A stretch of 45,037 nt of DNA, taken from positions 1-45,037 of the forward strand of contig JAMDBG010000003.1 in NCBI GenBank assembly GCA_023487865.1, read 5' to 3'. The position numbers were made by a program, and so were the translations under genes. The stretch is from Deltaproteobacteria bacterium. Its GTDB lineage: Bacteria > Desulfobacterota > Syntrophia > Syntrophales > UBA5619. Under the pieces are notes generated by a model. It saw nothing but the letters and a program-made list of their open reading frames with translations, had not been told where the DNA came from and searched no databases. Of the stretch, positions 22,267 through 30,402 are shown piece by piece (the stretch's first letter is position 1; each line of letters starts with the position of its first letter).

Positions 22267-25200
22267 TTAGAGGATTATTTTGAAAGATTCATCGGGGCCG
22301 ATTGCATGTTTTCCCGTATAGACGGCCCCGCTCCAGCCGTCAATACTGATGAAATCTCCGCTGCGGATGGTTTTATCGTCGACCCGGCTATACTCTTCCG
22401 ACTCATAGACATGGAGTTTATTGAAACCCACGACACCGACTTTGTTGAGTTGAGGGATCGTGACCGCCGCATGTGAAGTGCCGCCGCCCCTGGCAGTGAG
22501 GATACCTTCGACCTTCAGAATAATCCCGACGTCGTCCGGAACCGTATCAGGACGGATCAGAATGAGGGCTGTTTCCGGTTCCTTCTCCCGGAAATGTTCA
22601 ATCCCTTCTTCGGAATAGACCGCCCTGCCCGTCAATGCCCCGCCGCTCACCCCGATCCCCATGCCGAGAAAAGAGCGTTCCAGGTCGCCGTCACCCACAA
22701 AGGTTCTCACCATCCCCGTTTCCCTTTGAACCATATCGCGGGTCTGGAGGATATAGAGGCCCTTCTTTGTGGCATTTTCAAAGGTAAATTCGATTTCCTG
22801 ATGGCTGAATCCTTTATCATAGACCAGGAATTCCGCTATTCTGACAAGTTCCTTGTATATTTCCGGAAATCTCGTTTCCAGCGAGATCATCGACTCCCTT
22901 TTCTCCGCCGTCCTCTGCTTTTCCGATATGGGAAAGGTCTCCACGAGACCGGAAACGATATCGTCCCCCTGGACACCGAAAATGAAATCTCCATAAATGG
23001 AAACATCCTGCGATGAGCCCTTGGGATCCCGTGTCATGATGACACCCGAACCGGAGCATTCATTCAAGTTGCCGAACACCATGGCCTGGACGATGACGGC
23101 CGTGCCCCATTCATCGGAAAGATGCATCTGATGACGGAGGATCCTCGCCTGTTCGGAATTCCAGGAGGCGAAAACCTCCATAATGGCATGCTGGAGCTGC
23201 TGATAGGGATCGTTCGCAATCTTGATGCCTCTCTTTTCCATGGCCTCTTTATAGGAAAGGGCCAACAGTCTCATCTGTTCCGGATCGAACTGGATTTTCT
23301 TTTTCACGTCATAATGATTTTTAAAGGAGCTCATGATTTGATCGAAAATATTTCTCTCCAGCCCCTGGAACATTCCCCAGGTCTGCACGAGTCTCCGGTA
23401 AGAATCCCACGCCGCCCATTGATGGCCGTCCTGTCTGGCGAACCCCTCCGCAATCGTTTCATTGATGCCCACATTGAGAAAAGAACACATCATACCGGGG
23501 AGGGAAATCGTTGCACCGCTTCTCACGGAAAGGAGAAGGGTATTGTCGGGATCGCCGAAGGTTTTTCCGGTGATCCGCTCGAGATCTTTGATTTCCTTAC
23601 AGATCCTCTGCCAGAGGTCCTCAAAAATATATTCATACCCCATGACGCCTTCATAACCCCGAAAGACTTCGGTGGTGATCACAAAACCCGGCGGGACAGG
23701 CAGGTTGAAGGATGTCAGTTCCTTCAGGAAGTAAGCTTTGTTGCCGATGAGGATCTGGTTGTCCGTATCCCTGTTTTCTTTATAAAGGGTTGCTATGGCC
23801 AATTCCGGGATATAGGCCATGACAAGGTTGAGGATCTTCTTGTTGTCCTTGAATTTCTCCTGCTCCGCGCTCAGAGCCCTGATCACGGCATTAACGAAGT
23901 TATCCAGGACCTGCAGACCAAAGGCCGAGGCGATGATGGAACGGATGAAGTTTTCCGAGTATTGATAAAAGACCCGCTGCTCTTCCTTGGCGATGGTTTT
24001 TCTGTCCCTGTTTTCATCGTAATCCATTATCCGGCCGATAATGACAGGCAGATTGGAGCGATGGGCGTCGATATAGTAATCGCGGGTGATATCCTGAATG
24101 CCTTTGGCAATGAACTGGAAGATATCGATATACTGATCGATGGAAAACTGCCGTATCTGCAGGGCATTCGTTATATACTTCAGCTTTGCCACAAGTCCTT
24201 CCGTCGCCACCCCTTCCAGGTCGAGGGCTTTGACATAGAGCCACAGGTATTGATGAATCTTCATCAAGGTGCTTTTGGTAATGAACTTGAGGTTCAGGGA
24301 TTCCACCAACCTCTCAAAGAGCGTTGTCGCGAAACACTCGAGGCGGAGAGACAGACCCATGGCTTCGAATTTCTCTTCCCGGTAGGTCCCGTACATGGAA
24401 GGGATACCGGCGGCGATATGCCGTTTATAATAGATATTTTCAAATGAATCCGTCTTTTTTGAGGAAAGGATCCTCTCCTTCAAGCCTCCGATCATTCTGA
24501 GAATGATGATCAGGCTTCTGTAATCGTCCTTTTTTGCCAGTGACCGTTTGAGGGAGCGGACTTTTCGCGGATCGAGCAGGGCGGATGCTTCAAGGTCTTT
24601 CACGATATCGATATGCTGATGGTAATATTTCTTGTAGATCAGCTGATAGAACCTGATCATCAGCCCGGCACGCTCCTTTTCCCTTTCCAGGACGCCACTG
24701 ACTGCATTGATTTCTCTTGATATCTTCCCCTCATCCCATTGAAGAAGTGCAGAAACATCACCATGGGTCTTTTGAAACAGGCTGCCGAACAGGACATGCA
24801 GGTCGTCAAAATATTCACCTGACGCCCGAACCTCATTGAAAACCTCGCCAGGCAAGTGATCCTTCAGATATTCTCTTTCACCGGAATTCCAGTAACGAAA
24901 GATATCCTCGATGAAGGACACCAGACGACTGTTGCTTTCGACGTGCGACTGCTTTCTTAAAAAATAGATGAGTCTGTCATTTCTGGCGGAAAGCTCATCC
25001 ACCGCAGTCGATATCGCCCGCAACTCCCCCTCTGCACCGATCTCGCTGAAAAAAACCGGAAAAATTCTCAGGAGCTGTTTGACCAGATTGTAGGCGGGCA
25101 GGATATCTGAATTCAGCAGCAGGGAGATGTCCTTCTGAAGAAGGTCCGTATCCCGGACAAAAACCCCTCCCAGCTTCAGATTGATAATGAGGGCCGAGAG

Positions 25201-26481
25201 AAGTTTCTTTGTCCATCTTGGTTTGCGGGAAATAATCTCAAGCCAGGAGCGGATGTTTTTAATGTGAGTCGGGTTCACCCGGATTTGCCATTCAGCAGTA
25301 GGTCCCTGGACATCGGGATGCTGAAAACCGAAGGCCACAAGTTCTTCAAGGAAGGTATCCACGAGAGGATGGCTGTTGGACTCAAAAACTTCCTTCGCCA
25401 GTGTGGTGATGCAATCGAGGATGGAACTCCGGTATTGATTCTGTGCAACTGTCTTTTTCAATAAACGGAAGACCTTCTGCACAAGATCATTAACATTCCG
25501 ATCACTTTCTTCTTTTAACGCCCGCCCCAGACAGCGATTAATCTCGATCAGACACGCGTTGCGTATATCCGACAGTCCGTCAACATTCATCATATTGAAA
25601 AGAAAATCGAGTTTCACAAGATAACGGCGGCCTTTAAAAGCGTCGGATTTTTCGAGGGCATCCGCAATGACAAGGTATCCGTTGGCGATCTGCACATGGT
25701 CGGGCAGATCCAGGTAGGGTGAAATCGGGTCCGGAACAGTCAGCACCTGCCGGTCGAGGACCTCCAGACGGGCGAGCAGCTCACGGATATGTTGATGGGA
25801 AAGGGGCATGATCAGCTCTCGATACGCGTCCTTGTCTTCTTTGGTCTCGCCCTCCGCGGAGAACCATTGGGAAGGATCCGCTTGCGTCAGCCAGAAACGG
25901 TATGTCGATCTGAATACGGACGAGAGAAGCCCACTGACCTCATAATGCTCCGTCTTGATTGGAATCTCCATTAAAAGCTTTGCCGTCGCCTTCATATAAC
26001 TAGATGATTTTTTTAGTAAATTGTTATGATTCCGTGACAGATCGGCGAGCAAACGAAAGAAGGGAGAAAACAGGGGGGTGTTTCTCTCAAGCAGATGGTT
26101 GCTTTTGGAAAGAACGGTATTGAGAAACTCAAAGCAGTAACGGACGGCACTGTCCCGGACCTCTTCGTCCTTGGCCGAAGAGAGGACGACAAGATAAATA
26201 TCCGCCAACTTTTTCAGTGCGGGCAATCCCCTTTCATGGGTGTTGAAATCATAGAAATCGCCGATGGAAAGGCCCTTGAGCTGGGTAAGAACATATTCCC
26301 AGTTCACAAAGGGGTGGTGAAGCTCGATAAGAAGCTCTTCCGTCCGTTTCAACACCCCGTAATGGTTCTTCGCGACATCCAGGAGTATCCTGTATTCGTC
26401 GGGGATCTGCACAACTGCCCTGGTTCGCTCCAGATTGATTTCCAAGGCGCTCAAGGGTTGTGTATCTACTTTTGTATCCAT
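22267..26481 (-). CDS. PPDK-derived dikinase-like protein: ~900-aa unknown N-terminal region + ATP-grasp + phospho-His domain, no pyruvate/PEP-binding barrel
   Basis: IGNKA, PVPPGFVITT, SVRSGA, VQAMVFGN, QGDDIVSG, EIEFT, LQTR and GGGTSHAA; the ORF ends ~12 aa after the His domain (ISIDGWSGAVYTG). Confidence 0.88.
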   Translation of the reverse strand: MDTKVDTQPLSALEINLERTRAVVQIPDEYRILLDVAKNHYGVLKRTEELLIELHHPFVNWEYVLTQLKGLSIGDFYDFNTHERGLPALKKLADIYLVVLSSAKDEEVRDSAVRYCFEFLNTVLSKSNHLLERNTPLFSPFFRLLADLSRNHNNLLKKSSSYMKATAKLLMEIPIKTEHYEVSGLLSSVFRSTYRFWLTQADPSQWFSAEGETKEDKDAYRELIMPLSHQHIRELLARLEVLDRQVLTVPDPISPYLDLPDHVQIANGYLVIADALEKSDAFKGRRYLVKLDFLFNMMNVDGLSDIRNACLIEINRCLGRALKEESDRNVNDLVQKVFRLLKKTVAQNQYRSSILDCITTLAKEVFESNSHPLVDTFLEELVAFGFQHPDVQGPTAEWQIRVNPTHIKNIRSWLEIISRKPRWTKKLLSALIINLKLGGVFVRDTDLLQKDISLLLNSDILPAYNLVKQLLRIFPVFFSEIGAEGELRAISTAVDELSARNDRLIYFLRKQSHVESNSRLVSFIEDIFRYWNSGEREYLKDHLPGEVFNEVRASGEYFDDLHVLFGSLFQKTHGDVSALLQWDEGKISREINAVSGVLEREKERAGLMIRFYQLIYKKYYHQHIDIVKDLEASALLDPRKVRSLKRSLAKKDDYRSLIIILRMIGGLKERILSSKKTDSFENIYYKRHIAAGIPSMYGTYREEKFEAMGLSLRLECFATTLFERLVESLNLKFITKSTLMKIHQYLWLYVKALDLEGVATEGLVAKLKYITNALQIRQFSIDQYIDIFQFIAKGIQDITRDYYIDAHRSNLPVIIGRIMDYDENRDRKTIAKEEQRVFYQYSENFIRSIIASAFGLQVLDNFVNAVIRALSAEQEKFKDNKKILNLVMAYIPELAIATLYKENRDTDNQILIGNKAYFLKELTSFNLPVPPGFVITTEVFRGYEGVMGYEYIFEDLWQRICKEIKDLERITGKTFGDPDNTLLLSVRSGATISLPGMMCSFLNVGINETIAEGFARQDGHQWAAWDSYRRLVQTWGMFQGLERNIFDQIMSSFKNHYDVKKKIQFDPEQMRLLALSYKEAMEKRGIKIANDPYQQLQHAIMEVFASWNSEQARILRHQMHLSDEWGTAVIVQAMVFGNLNECSGSGVIMTRDPKGSSQDVSIYGDFIFGVQGDDIVSGLVETFPISEKQRTAEKRESMISLETRFPEIYKELVRIAEFLVYDKGFSHQEIEFTFENATKKGLYILQTRDMVQRETGMVRTFVGDGDLERSFLGMGIGVSGGALTGRAVYSEEGIEHFREKEPETALILIRPDTVPDDVGIILKVEGILTARGGGTSHAAVTIPQLNKVGVVGFNKLHVYESEEYSRVDDKTIRSGDFISIDGWSGAVYTGKHAIGPDESFKIIL

Positions 26482-26674: not shown

Positions 26675-27424
26675 ATGATTCGACCGGTCATCGCTGGAAA
26701 CTGGAAGATGAATAAGACCGTAGCGGAGGCGGTGGATTTTGCCGTGCGTCTCCGGACGGCATACAGCACCCCCCCGGATCGGGAAGTAATCATCGCTCCT
26801 CCGTTCACAGCGCTTCAGGCAGTGGCGGACACCATCCGGGGGTCATTCATCCTTCTTGCCGCCCAGAATCTGCATGAGGAGGAAAAGGGGGCCTATACCG
26901 GTGAGATCTCAGGCAAGATGCTTCGCGAGGCAGGATGCAACTGCGTCATCATCGGCCACTCAGAGCGTCGCACCCTCTTTACCGAAAGCGATGACCGCAT
27001 CAACCGGAAGCTACGGGCGGCCCTGACGGCCGGCCTGAGACCGATCTTCTGTATCGGAGAGTCACTCCGACAGCGGGAAGAGGGTGAAACGGAGGCGGTC
27101 ATAGAGCACCAATTAAAAGAGGGATTGAATAATTTGACTGCCAATGATATAGAATCATGTGTCGTCGCCTATGAGCCGGTATGGGCGATCGGTACCGGCA
27201 AAACGGCGAGCCCGGAACAAGCCGAGAAGGTTCATCGCTTCATCCGGGAATGGATCGTCCGGCGGTACGGTCCGAAAAATGGGGCGGAGCTGGCCATCCT
27301 CTATGGGGGCAGTGTCACGCCGAAGAACATCGCCGAGCTGATGGCACAGCCGGATATCAACGGGGCGCTGGTAGGCGGTGCCAGCCTGGATGTCGATTCT
27401 TTCATCCAGCTTGTCGGTTGTTGA
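26675..27424 (+). CDS. tpiA: Triosephosphate isomerase
   Basis: AGNWKM, IGHSERR, AYEPVWAIGTG, YGGSV and LVGGASL. Confidence 0.97.
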   Translation: MIRPVIAGNWKMNKTVAEAVDFAVRLRTAYSTPPDREVIIAPPFTALQAVADTIRGSFILLAAQNLHEEEKGAYTGEISGKMLREAGCNCVIIGHSERRTLFTESDDRINRKLRAALTAGLRPIFCIGESLRQREEGETEAVIEHQLKEGLNNLTANDIESCVVAYEPVWAIGTGKTASPEQAEKVHRFIREWIVRRYGPKNGAELAILYGGSVTPKNIAELMAQPDINGALVGGASLDVDSFIQLVGC

Positions 27425-27448
27425 ATCAAATTAAAGGGGTATAAAAAA

Positions 27449-27808
27449 GTGCAAATTCTCGTCACCATATTACATGTGATCGTCTGCATCGTCCTGATCC
27501 TCGTCGTACTGCTGCAGGCGGGTAAGGGCGCCAATATGGGCGCCGTTTTCGGAGGTTCCAGCCAGACCATTTTCGGAAGCAGCGGCCCGGGGACCTTTCT
27601 CGGCAAGATGACGACCGGGGTCGCCATCATCTTCATGCTGACCTCGTTCAGCCTATCCTATACAGCCTCCCACAAGGGGACTTCCCTGATGGAGGGTGCC
27701 TCGCGACCCGCGGCCCAGAAAACGGCTCCCGTGCAGCAGCCGGCAGCACCGTCTGCCCCGGCAGCCCCGGCGCCACAGGCCCCGGCAGCACCCCCGACGG
27801 CCAAATAG
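27449..27808 (+). CDS. secG: Preprotein translocase subunit SecG
   Basis: VLLQAGKGA-MGA-FGG-SQTIFG; 2 TM segments, Pro/Ala-rich tail; usual tpiA-secG-tRNA-Leu synteny. Confidence 0.95.
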   Translation: MQILVTILHVIVCIVLILVVLLQAGKGANMGAVFGGSSQTIFGSSGPGTFLGKMTTGVAIIFMLTSFSLSYTASHKGTSLMEGASRPAAQKTAPVQQPAAPSAPAAPAPQAPAAPPTAK

Positions 27809-27845
27809 ATCCCTGTCCGGGAAAGCGGATGCTGTTCTTTTGATA

Positions 27846-27874
27846 TTGACAAAGTCTTATTTAATAGGTAAGTT
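27846..27874 (+). promoter_or_regulatory. Putative promoter of tRNA-Leu
   Basis: TTGACA-N17-TAAGTT. Confidence 0.5.
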
Positions 27875-27928
27875 CCCGGCGAAAGTCCGCCCGGTGGTGC
27901 CTTTAGCGCCGGTGGTTGCGATACGAGT

Positions 27929-28015
27929 GCCGAAGTGGTGGAATCTGGTAGACACGCTATCTTGAGGGGGTAGTGAGCTACGCTCATCCGGGTTCAAGTC
28001 CCGGCTTCGGCACCA
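27929..28015 (+). tRNA. tRNA-Leu(GAG)
   Basis: Acceptor stem GCCGAAG/CTTCGGC, anticodon arm CTATC-TTGAGGG-GGTAG, long variable arm, GGTTCAA T-loop, encoded CCA. Confidence 0.97.
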
Positions 28016-28033
28016 TTATACTGAAAATGCAAC

Positions 28034-28067
28034 GGGGAAACGGGCAGGCGCCCGGAACCCCCTTTTC
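28034..28067 (+). terminator. Likely intrinsic terminator after tRNA-Leu
   Basis: GGGG..CGGGC/GCCCG..CCCC hairpin followed by TTTT. Confidence 0.55.
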
Positions 28068-28141
28068 TTACCTCTATCATCGGCGTCAATCGCACAAGGG
28101 ACCGATCTAAAAACCAGCGTTATGCAACGAAAAGGAAAATC

Positions 28142-28279
28142 ATGAACGAAGGCCTGCTTCTGATTGTCATCGTCGTAGGGTGGTTTATCCTGAACCGCTT
28201 TGTCCTGCCCCGCTTCGGCATCCGTACCTGAATCTGCCCTGACGGGAAGGATTCCCGTCCCGGTAAAGATGTAAAGTAA
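28142..28279 (+). CDS. Small single-TM protein; candidate selenoprotein (29 aa to the UGA, 45 aa with read-through)
   Basis: RBS AAAGGA before ATG 28142; MNEGLLLIVIVVGWFILNRFVLPRFGIRT-TGA(28229-31)-ICPDGKDSRPGKDVK-TAA; hairpin directly 3' of the TGA; too short for the ORF track. Confidence 0.65.
28241..28259 (+). promoter_or_regulatory. Putative bacterial SECIS element
   Basis: Perfect 8-bp stem GACGGGAA/TTCCCGTC with a GGA loop starting 17 nt after the in-frame TGA. Confidence 0.55.
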
Positions 28280-28610
28280 TTAAAGAACAGCAAATTTGCA
28301 CCGGAATAACCGGGTGGGAGGAATACCCGACGCTCCCCGGATTCAGGCGTGATCTCTATTCAATCTCTGACAATCCCCTCTTTTCGGCTTGTCTCTCCCC
28401 CCTCCACCAGTGACCGTTTTCCAGCGTATAGATCCAACCAGGACTGCAGGGCAGATCACAGACCACACCATGAGTCAACACACCACAAACGAAGCAAGCG
28501 AAAAAAGCTTAACATTTTCCGAAAAATCGGATAAGGTCACGGCGGTCCACAATAAAAAATCCTAATGCGGGAATGTATCAAGATATCGGTTGGCATCTAT
28601 ATTGGGTGCA

Positions 28611-29477
28611 ATGATGATCAATCAGCAGATTCGGGATTTTATCTCACATATGCCCAGGTTTTCCGCGACCGGAACAAAGGTGATGGAAGTCTGCAATCGC
28701 CCGACGACCTCATCACATGATCTCAACAGGGTGATTTCCTTGGACCCGGTTCTCACCGGCAAAGTTTTAAAACTGGTCAATTCCGCATACTATTCCTTGG
28801 GCAAGGAGGTGACCTCCCTGACCCATGCCTTCATCCTGCTGGGAATCAATACAGTGAAGAATCTTGCCTTGGGCACCGCTATTCTGGAGAGTATCGGTGG
28901 AAGGAGTTCGTTTCGCTGCCTGTCCATGGATGATTTCTGGCTTCACTCTCTGGGTGTGGGAGTGATTTCGAGATCACTGGCACGGCTGACAGGAATTCCC
29001 TTCGCGGAGGAAGAAGGATATTTCGTCGCCGGACTTCTCCATGACCTGGGGAAGATTCCTCTCAACTATTGTGATCCGGAGATGTACAACCGTGCTCTTG
29101 AAGCGGCAATTCTCCAACAAACCACTCTCTACGAGGCGGAAAAGACGTGTCTGGGCCTTGATCACTGTATCGTGGGCGGATGGATAGCTGAAAAATGGAG
29201 GCTGCATCGGGATTTTTTGGATGTCCTTCATTTCCACCATGACCAGAACAGCGGTAGAGAAAAATCCCCTTTCTTAGTCATCGTGTCCCTGGCGAACCTC
29301 TATGCAAACTACTGGAAGATCGGCTCGGCGGGAAACACAACGCCGGTCCATTTACTGATGGAACATCTTCAGAAAAGGCTGAACATTGCACCGGAGCAGA
29401 TTGCTGCGATTCACGATAAAGTTTTGGAAGATATAGATAAATCTCGAATTTTCCTGGAGGTGGCAACCGAGGGATGA
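28611..29477 (+). CDS. HDOD domain signalling protein
   Basis: DPVLTGKVLKLVNSAYY, FWLHS, AGLLHDLGK, LGLDH and WRL motifs. Confidence 0.9.
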   Translation: MMINQQIRDFISHMPRFSATGTKVMEVCNRPTTSSHDLNRVISLDPVLTGKVLKLVNSAYYSLGKEVTSLTHAFILLGINTVKNLALGTAILESIGGRSSFRCLSMDDFWLHSLGVGVISRSLARLTGIPFAEEEGYFVAGLLHDLGKIPLNYCDPEMYNRALEAAILQQTTLYEAEKTCLGLDHCIVGGWIAEKWRLHRDFLDVLHFHHDQNSGREKSPFLVIVSLANLYANYWKIGSAGNTTPVHLLMEHLQKRLNIAPEQIAAIHDKVLEDIDKSRIFLEVATEG

Positions 29478-29481
29478 GCGC

Positions 29482-30402
29482 ATGATGGATATTACGTTCT
29501 GGGGTGTGAGAGGGGGCATCCCCTCTCCGGGAGCGCACACGGTCAAATACGGAGGGAACACCTCCTGTGTGGAACTGTACTTCCCTGATTCTCACCGGCT
29601 CATCATCATCGATGCCGGTTCAGGCATCCGTAACCTCGGCAGCCGCATGGTGTCTCCGGATTACCGACAGACACCTATAGACGCGGATCTGTTTTTCACC
29701 CATACCCACAGCGATCACATTATCGGATTTCCTTTTTTTGCCCCCCTTTATATCCCAGGGACGAAACTCCGGATATACGGACCTGTGACCTATGACGAAG
29801 ACTCACTGGAAAAGATCATCAGCTCTCATATGTCCTATCATTTTTTCCCCGTCCGCCTGGCAGAACTCGCAGCTGAAATGGTCTATAACGAATTAAAAGA
29901 GGGATCCTATGAACTCGGCGACGGAATAACGGTGACCACCCGGTACCTGAACCATCCCCTGTTGTGTTTCGGTTACCGATTTGAGCATCAGGGGCGGGTC
30001 ATCTGTACGGCTTTTGATAACGAACCGTTTCGCAATCTATTCGCCCGGCATCCCGGTAAGCCTGACGACGATGACTCTATAGCTCTGGAGGGCGAGAATG
30101 TGGCTGCCCAGGAAAACACCCGTCTGGAAAACTTTTTCGCAGGGGCCGATCTCCTGATCTCTGACGCCCAGTACCTTCAGCAGGAATATGAATCTTCCCG
30201 ATTGGGCTGGGGTCATTCTCCCGTCGAACATGCCATAGACGCCGCTCGGCGGGCTCAAGTAAAACGGTTGGCTCTCTTCCACCACGATCCTGAACGCACC
30301 GACGCGCAGCTTGATACGCTGGAATCGTTTCACTGCAAACCCGATCCGAAGAAGGGGATGGAAATCTTTTTCGCCCGAGAGGGGATGCGGATCGAGATAT
30401 AA
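29482..30402 (+). CDS. Metallo-beta-lactamase-fold hydrolase (phosphodiesterase-like)
   Basis: FWGVRG, YGGNTSC, DAGSG, THTHSDH, WGHS and LFHHDP. Confidence 0.9.
   Translation: MMDITFWGVRGGIPSPGAHTVKYGGNTSCVELYFPDSHRLIIIDAGSGIRNLGSRMVSPDYRQTPIDADLFFTHTHSDHIIGFPFFAPLYIPGTKLRIYGPVTYDEDSLEKIISSHMSYHFFPVRLAELAAEMVYNELKEGSYELGDGITVTTRYLNHPLLCFGYRFEHQGRVICTAFDNEPFRNLFARHPGKPDDDDSIALEGENVAAQENTRLENFFAGADLLISDAQYLQQEYESSRLGWGHSPVEHAIDAARRAQVKRLALFHHDPERTDAQLDTLESFHCKPDPKKGMEIFFAREGMRIEI

Follow-up and report, generated by a model that had tools for sequence, protein, structure and literature searches.

Does the short open reading frame that begins at position 28142 of the window end at its in-frame TGA, or is this codon read as selenocysteine (Sec) so that the gene continues to the TAA farther downstream? 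The window is a 45,037-nucleotide stretch of a deltaproteobacterial contig (JAMDBG010000003.1 of assembly GCA_023487865.1), and the first-pass annotation of its letters had proposed a 45-residue membrane-anchored selenoprotein with a U-x-C motif and a SECIS-like hairpin, which gene callers would miss or truncate to 29 residues. The sequence layout described in that annotation is confirmed base for base (Table 1). Although there is no direct evidence of selenium incorporation or of translation past the UGA, the comparisons presented below strongly support the selenoprotein reading, and the gene is very probably real. Sec insertion itself, the membrane topology, and the function are inferred.

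Table 1. Positions of the candidate selenoprotein gene, its parts, and its surroundings in the window.
Feature	Positions	Strand	Description
tpiA	26675-27424		Upstream gene
secG	27449-27808		Upstream gene
Terminator-like site	27814-27831		Follows secG
tRNA-Leu(GAG)	27929-28015		Upstream gene
Shine-Dalgarno-like sequence	28132-28136	+	AAGGA, 5 nt before the ATG
Whole gene	28142-28279	+	ATG at 28142; 45 codons with UGA read as Sec, plus the stop; product MNEGLLLIVIVVGWFILNRFVLPRFGIRT-U-ICPDGKDSRPGKDVK
29-aa ORF under table 11	28142-28231		MNEGLLLIVIVVGWFILNRFVLPRFGIRT and the TGA; the only ORF listed for the gene
Predicted membrane helix	28145-28216	+	Residues 2-25
G-x-x-T	28217-28228	+	G26-I-R-T29, immediately before the proposed Sec codon
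In-frame UGA	28229-28231	+	Proposed Sec30
Cys32 codon	28235-28237	+	TGC; U-x-C spacing
SECIS-like hairpin	28241-28259	+	8-bp perfect stem inside the coding tail (codons D34-R39)
Hairpin 5' arm	28241-28248	+	GACGGGAA
Hairpin loop	28249-28251	+	GGA; first base 17 nt after the UGA
Hairpin 3' arm	28252-28259	+	TTCCCGTC
Stop codon	28277-28279	+	TAA, after 15 further sense codons

The gene follows tpiA, secG, and tRNA-Leu, and lies about 300 nt before a 295-aa ORF. The region 28220-28300 folds at -20.1 kcal/mol with z = -2.17, and 6 of 200 shuffled sequences fold at least as well; taken alone, the hairpin is therefore only mildly unusual, and it is lifted above chance by its conservation across homologues. 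An Rfam search of 27000-29500 at permissive E-values found only the tRNA-Leu and chance-level hits, with no match over the hairpin, and a promoter and terminator scan gave nothing useful for this gene.

A six-frame search of 61 related genomes with the read-through peptide gave 34 best rows (E <= 0.0103), every one of which has a single in-frame TGA. Of these loci, 29 were extended, and the same layout was observed each time: a start codon (26 ATG, 3 GTG) located exactly 29 codons before the TGA in 28 of 29 and 28 codons before it in one, a hydrophobic helix, the motif L-P-[RK]-x-G-[IV]-x-T-TGA, and an open tail of 11-34 codons. Ten further copies were found, including a second gene in the window's own genome with a tail that begins ULKQSC. 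Eight weak hits proved unrelated and were dropped before all counts; four of these are 80-86-aa ORFs that matched without stops. A profile of the 29 loci, in which M1, W14, L22, P23, G26, T29, and U30 are invariant, matched 188 of 401 genomes sampled across the phylum, in 124 of 255 genera. All 150 listed matches contain the TGA, and the alignment runs past it. In a larger alignment of 89 rows, W14, P23, G26, and T29 remain invariant, whereas L22 is nearly invariant. A motif filter that allowed Sec, Cys, or any stop at this position found TGA in all 65 non-redundant loci. In contrast, long open frames of the window's own genome end in TGA only 53% of the time, and the terminal stops of the family are mixed (TGA 61, TAA 30, and TAG 26 of 118, with one cut by a locus end). 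Related genomes are not independent samples; even allowing for shared ancestry, however, an ordinary stop codon would not be invariant like this.

To examine the distribution beyond the phylum, a degenerate DNA pattern for W14...L-P-x-x-G-x-x-T-TGA was scanned over one genome per GTDB species. All 120 show the motif in a plausible setting: in 118 of 120, at least 13 of the 17 residues before the motif are hydrophobic, and 118 of 120 have a start codon 25-32 codons upstream of the TGA. Record titles name many Desulfobacterales, Geobacterales, and Syntrophales, including three cultured strains, i.e., Geomobilimonas luticola JCM 17780, Pelotalea chapellei DSM 13688, and Geobacter sp. OR-1. By these titles, the peptide also occurs in at least ten other phyla; the names include Nitrospirota, Acidobacteriota, Planctomycetota (including Kuenenia), Chloroflexota, Myxococcota, Armatimonadota, KSB1, Gemmatimonadota, Verrucomicrobia, Spirochaetes, and Alphaproteobacteria. 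Two named records encode peptides identical to those of two same-phylum genomes. In a sample of 151 genomes of the phylum of one Planctomycetaceae record, 15 carry the peptide, and all 15 have TGA.

Three observations indicate that the tail is translated. The frame after the TGA stays open for at least 11 codons in 181 of 181 distinct copies, whereas the +1 and +2 frames close earlier in 63 and 62 of 181, respectively. In addition, homologues with Cys at this position and one continuous ORF exist, although they are rare: P0002, P0003, P0004, P0008, P0014, P0019, and P0022 of the protein collection searched. Their tails look like those of the Sec forms (C-M-x-x-A-C-Q-V...), and P0019 is nr record MBN2325805.1 from a Candidatus Omnitrophota MAG. 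Furthermore, in one Pirellulales record (L112) the frame of the peptide runs without a stop into a thioredoxin. Most of the 247 database hits are the 29-residue truncation, labelled at best "hypothetical protein", and the window's own 29-mer is among them. Forms with Trp at this position (P0005-P0007, P0009, P0010, P0027, and P0099) are also present in the collection. We think that these are TGA read under another code, because a 29-aa member (P0123) shares the 90% cluster of P0005 and no genomic copy has TGG.

A contiguous stem of at least 5 bp was located by a strict finder in 58 of 64 distinct copies, and the loop starts 16 or 17 nt after the UGA in 40 of those 58. The commonest loops are GGA (12), GGUCGA (10), and AGGU (9); the loop in the window lacks the U seen in many relatives. 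On two ungapped subsets, RNAalifold placed the same helix, with 93.0% and 96.8% of cells paired, and three pairs in each subset show changes on both sides. Fourteen cells carry double changes, against 3.4 and 4.4 in column shuffles; none of 500 shuffles reaches the observed value, and slid partners score far lower. This is the position and loop type expected of a bacterial SECIS. Interestingly, in most of the family the Cys codon UGC is itself part of the 5' stem, and in the clade with U-M-V-Q-x-R-Q it is CGC (Arg), with a compensating change in the 3' arm. The U-x-C motif emphasized in the first-pass annotation is specific to the window's small clade: the first Cys is at U+2 in only 7 of 181 copies, whereas it is at U+5, i.e., U-x4-C, in 132, at U+6 in 8, further away in 21, and absent in 13. 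Much of the apparent protein conservation of the tail is thus imposed by the stem that it encodes; the tail may matter mostly as RNA, and the Cys may be dispensable.

The window's own genome has tRNA-Sec (75.3 bits), SelB (378.5 bits), and a SelD that itself has an in-frame TGA, whereas SelA was not found in this 79%-complete assembly. Thirteen peptide-positive genomes were probed with the tRNA-Sec model, i.e., eight that lacked a SelA match and five from other phyla, and all thirteen have tRNA-Sec; five of the eight were also found to have SelB. A fourteenth, from the Planctomycetota sample, lacked both a SelA and a tRNA-Sec match but has SelB-like genes and a SelD with TGA. No carrier was shown to lack the system. 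SelA is present in 372 of 401 sampled genomes of the phylum, and in the Planctomycetota sample in 14 of 15 carriers, against 112 of 151 overall. This co-occurrence agrees with the selenoprotein reading but has little power because Sec machinery is common in these phyla.

One rival is that the gene ends at the UGA, the product is a 29-residue membrane peptide, and the conserved hairpin serves another purpose such as transcript stability or regulation. The ORF listing and the databases give exactly this product, and the best-conserved part of the protein is the first 29 residues. Because Sec insertion in bacteria appears often to be inefficient, a truncated form probably exists alongside the full-length one. 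As the sole product, however, it is unlikely in view of the invariant TGA, the open frame beyond it, the Cys homologues that read straight through, and a hairpin with SECIS-like position and loop that is not followed by a T-run. It is also improbable that the ORF is mainly a selenium-sensing leader, in which read-through or termination at the UGA reports the Sec-tRNA supply, controls translation or transcription downstream, and leaves the peptide with little function. The ORF is short, with a UGA and a structured RNA, and in 8 loci of one genus a downstream gene starts -14 to 13 nt after the stop of the peptide, which would allow translational coupling. On the other hand, no downstream gene is conserved across the family, the next ORF in the window is about 300 nt away, a membrane helix with invariant W, P, G, and T across phyla is not expected of a mere leader, and the Cys forms keep the same protein although they cannot sense selenium.

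In some carriers, the UGA might instead be read as Cys, or as another residue, by a tRNA-Sec-like tRNA, in which case the family would be a recoded-UGA family but not always a selenoprotein. Three carriers of one genus lack a SelA match, and two of them have only a lower-scoring tRNA-Sec hit of 58.4 bits; another genome (G196) has a second tRNA-Sec-like gene at 52.9 bits beside a SelB-like ORF. UGA-to-Cys recoding by such tRNAs may occur in deltaproteobacteria. Nevertheless, those three genomes are only 61-79% complete, and given the tRNA-Sec, full-length SelB, and Sec-containing SelD of the window's own genome, Sec is the default reading here; this alternative is likewise improbable.

The recoding mechanism is the ordinary bacterial one, of the fdhF type, whereas the protein does not match a catalogued family. 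Only weak transmembrane-helix matches were obtained for 89 members in NCBIfam (release 20, June 2026) and Pfam at E <= 1, and for three members at E <= 10, and a 2026 table of 119 prokaryotic selenoprotein families and subfamilies lists nothing like it (PMC13188914). The ESM Atlas gave only unnamed clusters. No bacterial small membrane selenoprotein was found in the literature (bioRxiv 10.1101/2022.07.06.499078 and PMC13326102 among the papers consulted) in searches that did not extend to supplementary tables or subscription papers, so that prior mention cannot be excluded; phrase hits concerned eukaryotic SELENOK and SELENOS. The members are small (about 41-97 residues), membrane-anchored, and almost always in the Sec form, and we know of no other bacterial selenoprotein of this shape. 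Current selenoprotein finders lean on Cys homologues and on annotated ORFs, and the authors of deep-Sep state that their method may miss selenoproteins without Cys homologues (PMC12013277). If confirmed, the family would add a new and very common member to the bacterial selenoproteome, would show that these finders have a systematic blind spot, and counts of selenoproteins per genome in anaerobes would need revising.

AlphaFold2 with the 89-row alignment predicts one helix (residues 2-25, pLDDT about 90) and a disordered tail. The N-terminus is short and acidic, and basic residues follow the helix; we therefore infer an N-out/C-in topology, which would place Sec30 at the cytoplasmic face of the inner membrane. 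In architecture, the peptide resembles SELENOK and SELENOS, small single-pass ER-membrane selenoproteins with a disordered, charged cytosolic tail that carries Sec and, in SELENOS, a Sec-Cys pair that is probably reduced by thioredoxin. However, no SELENOK or SELENOS family was among the Pfam matches, the Sec lies 5 residues after the helix and not near the C-terminus, and the SECIS is in-frame and not in a 3' UTR; the resemblance is convergent. The FeoB-associated Cys-rich membrane protein (PF12669) is also a tiny protein with an N-terminal helix and a Cys-containing tail, but none of the 89 members matched its model at E <= 1, the motif L-P-x-x-G-x-x-T-U-x4-C differs from its probable clustered CxC repeats, and the neighbours are not feoB. 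Likewise, none matched the YgaP-like TM domain (PF11127, DUF2892), a small membrane segment that may end in a similar G-I-x-T-C-like motif, and we treat it as a neighbour and not a relative.

The flanking ORFs of 183 loci were clustered, with flanks of +-1.5 kb for 65 loci and +-2.5 kb for 118. Thioredoxin (PF00085, WCGPC) is the commonest neighbour, at 27 loci, 21 of them on the same strand within 150 nt, followed by ArsR-family regulators (PF01022; 24 loci, 15 on the same strand within 150 nt), proteins with a YgaP-like TM domain (15 and 5), ECF sigma factors (10 loci), and DsbD_TM/CcdA (PF02683; 6 loci). A WCxPC motif lies within 700 nt on the same strand of a random position in about 0.2% of the window's own genome, so the thioredoxin link is far above chance. 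Fifty-four loci have at least one of thioredoxin, ArsR, YgaP-like, or DsbD_TM, whereas the other 129 have none; these include the window's own locus, which has tpiA, secG, and tRNA-Leu upstream and an HDOD-like ORF downstream, and the functional proposal thus rests on a minority. The "redox or metal-binding" role suggested in the first-pass annotation remains an inference. We tentatively propose a membrane-tethered Sec (Sec/Cys) redox centre that is kept reduced by thioredoxin and acts on a membrane-proximal substrate such as reactive sulfur or selenium species, metal(loid)s, or peroxides, in many lineages under ArsR-type control. More broadly, it is somewhat more likely than not that this is one of the most widespread bacterial selenoprotein families, missed by every catalogue because it is tiny, has few Cys homologues, and is truncated by gene callers, and that it is a convergent bacterial counterpart of SELENOK/SELENOS wired into ArsR-, YgaP-, and CcdA-type sulfur, selenium, and metalloid redox modules. 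A YeeE/YedE sulfur-transport fragment was also annotated upstream of the peptide at one locus, and its ORF cluster spans three loci.

The genome from which the window derives (G000) carries a second member of the peptide family at locus L055, on contig C123, and this member is of the common type; its Sec residue (U) is followed by LKQSCSVESR. The U-x-C gene of the window is therefore a lineage-specific paralogue, which is seen in 7 genomes of two genera. In the closest relatives (loci L010 and L011), the order of tpiA, secG, tRNA-Leu(GAG), and the peptide gene is kept. One database protein (P0119) is a miscalled 85-aa ORF that runs through the tRNA into the peptide. Public protein sets also hold full-length family members (P0005-P0007, P0009, P0010, P0027, and P0099) with W at the position where the genome copies have TGA; these are probably contigs translated under a code that reads TGA as Trp, and a 29-aa form shares one such cluster. 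The coordinates of these and other features are listed in the table below.

Coordinates of features in the window, in the genome of the window, and in other genomes and loci
Feature	Genome, contig, or locus	Coordinates	Strand
Second family member of the common type (L055)	G000:C123	4101-4244	-
Peptide reading frame continuing into a thioredoxin	L112 (Pirellulales MAG record)	1145-1660	+
Downstream ORF (example of the 8 loci)	L060	998-1426	-
SelD gene with an in-frame TGA (L086), cut by the contig end	G000:C28	1-516	-
Second tRNA-Sec-like gene and the SelB-like ORF directly beside it	G196:C19	91158-91246 and 91285-92403	
tRNA-Leu(GAG)	Window	27929-28015	
1404-aa ORF	Window	22267-26481	-

In the Pirellulales MAG record L112, the reading frame of the peptide continues without a stop into a full thioredoxin (WCGPC), which is either a natural membrane-anchor-Sec-thioredoxin fusion or two genes in one frame. 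In 8 loci of one genus (L058, L060, L061, L065-L067, L070, and L073), a 143-aa protein starts -14 to 13 nt after the stop codon of the peptide. This protein has two C-Q-L-G-[LA]-F motifs, one of which is at the very C-terminus, and no Pfam match, and a 3D-domain lipoprotein lies just upstream.

With regard to the selenocysteine machinery, the SelD gene of the window's own genome has an in-frame TGA, so it is itself a selenoprotein. The tRNA-Sec-like gene of genome G196 that lies beside the SelB-like ORF is a second, lower-scoring one (52.9 bits), and two carriers of a genus without a SelA match (G145 and G178) have only a 58.4-bit tRNA-Sec hit. This arrangement is reminiscent of the UGA-to-Cys recoding tRNAs that appear to occur in deltaproteobacteria.
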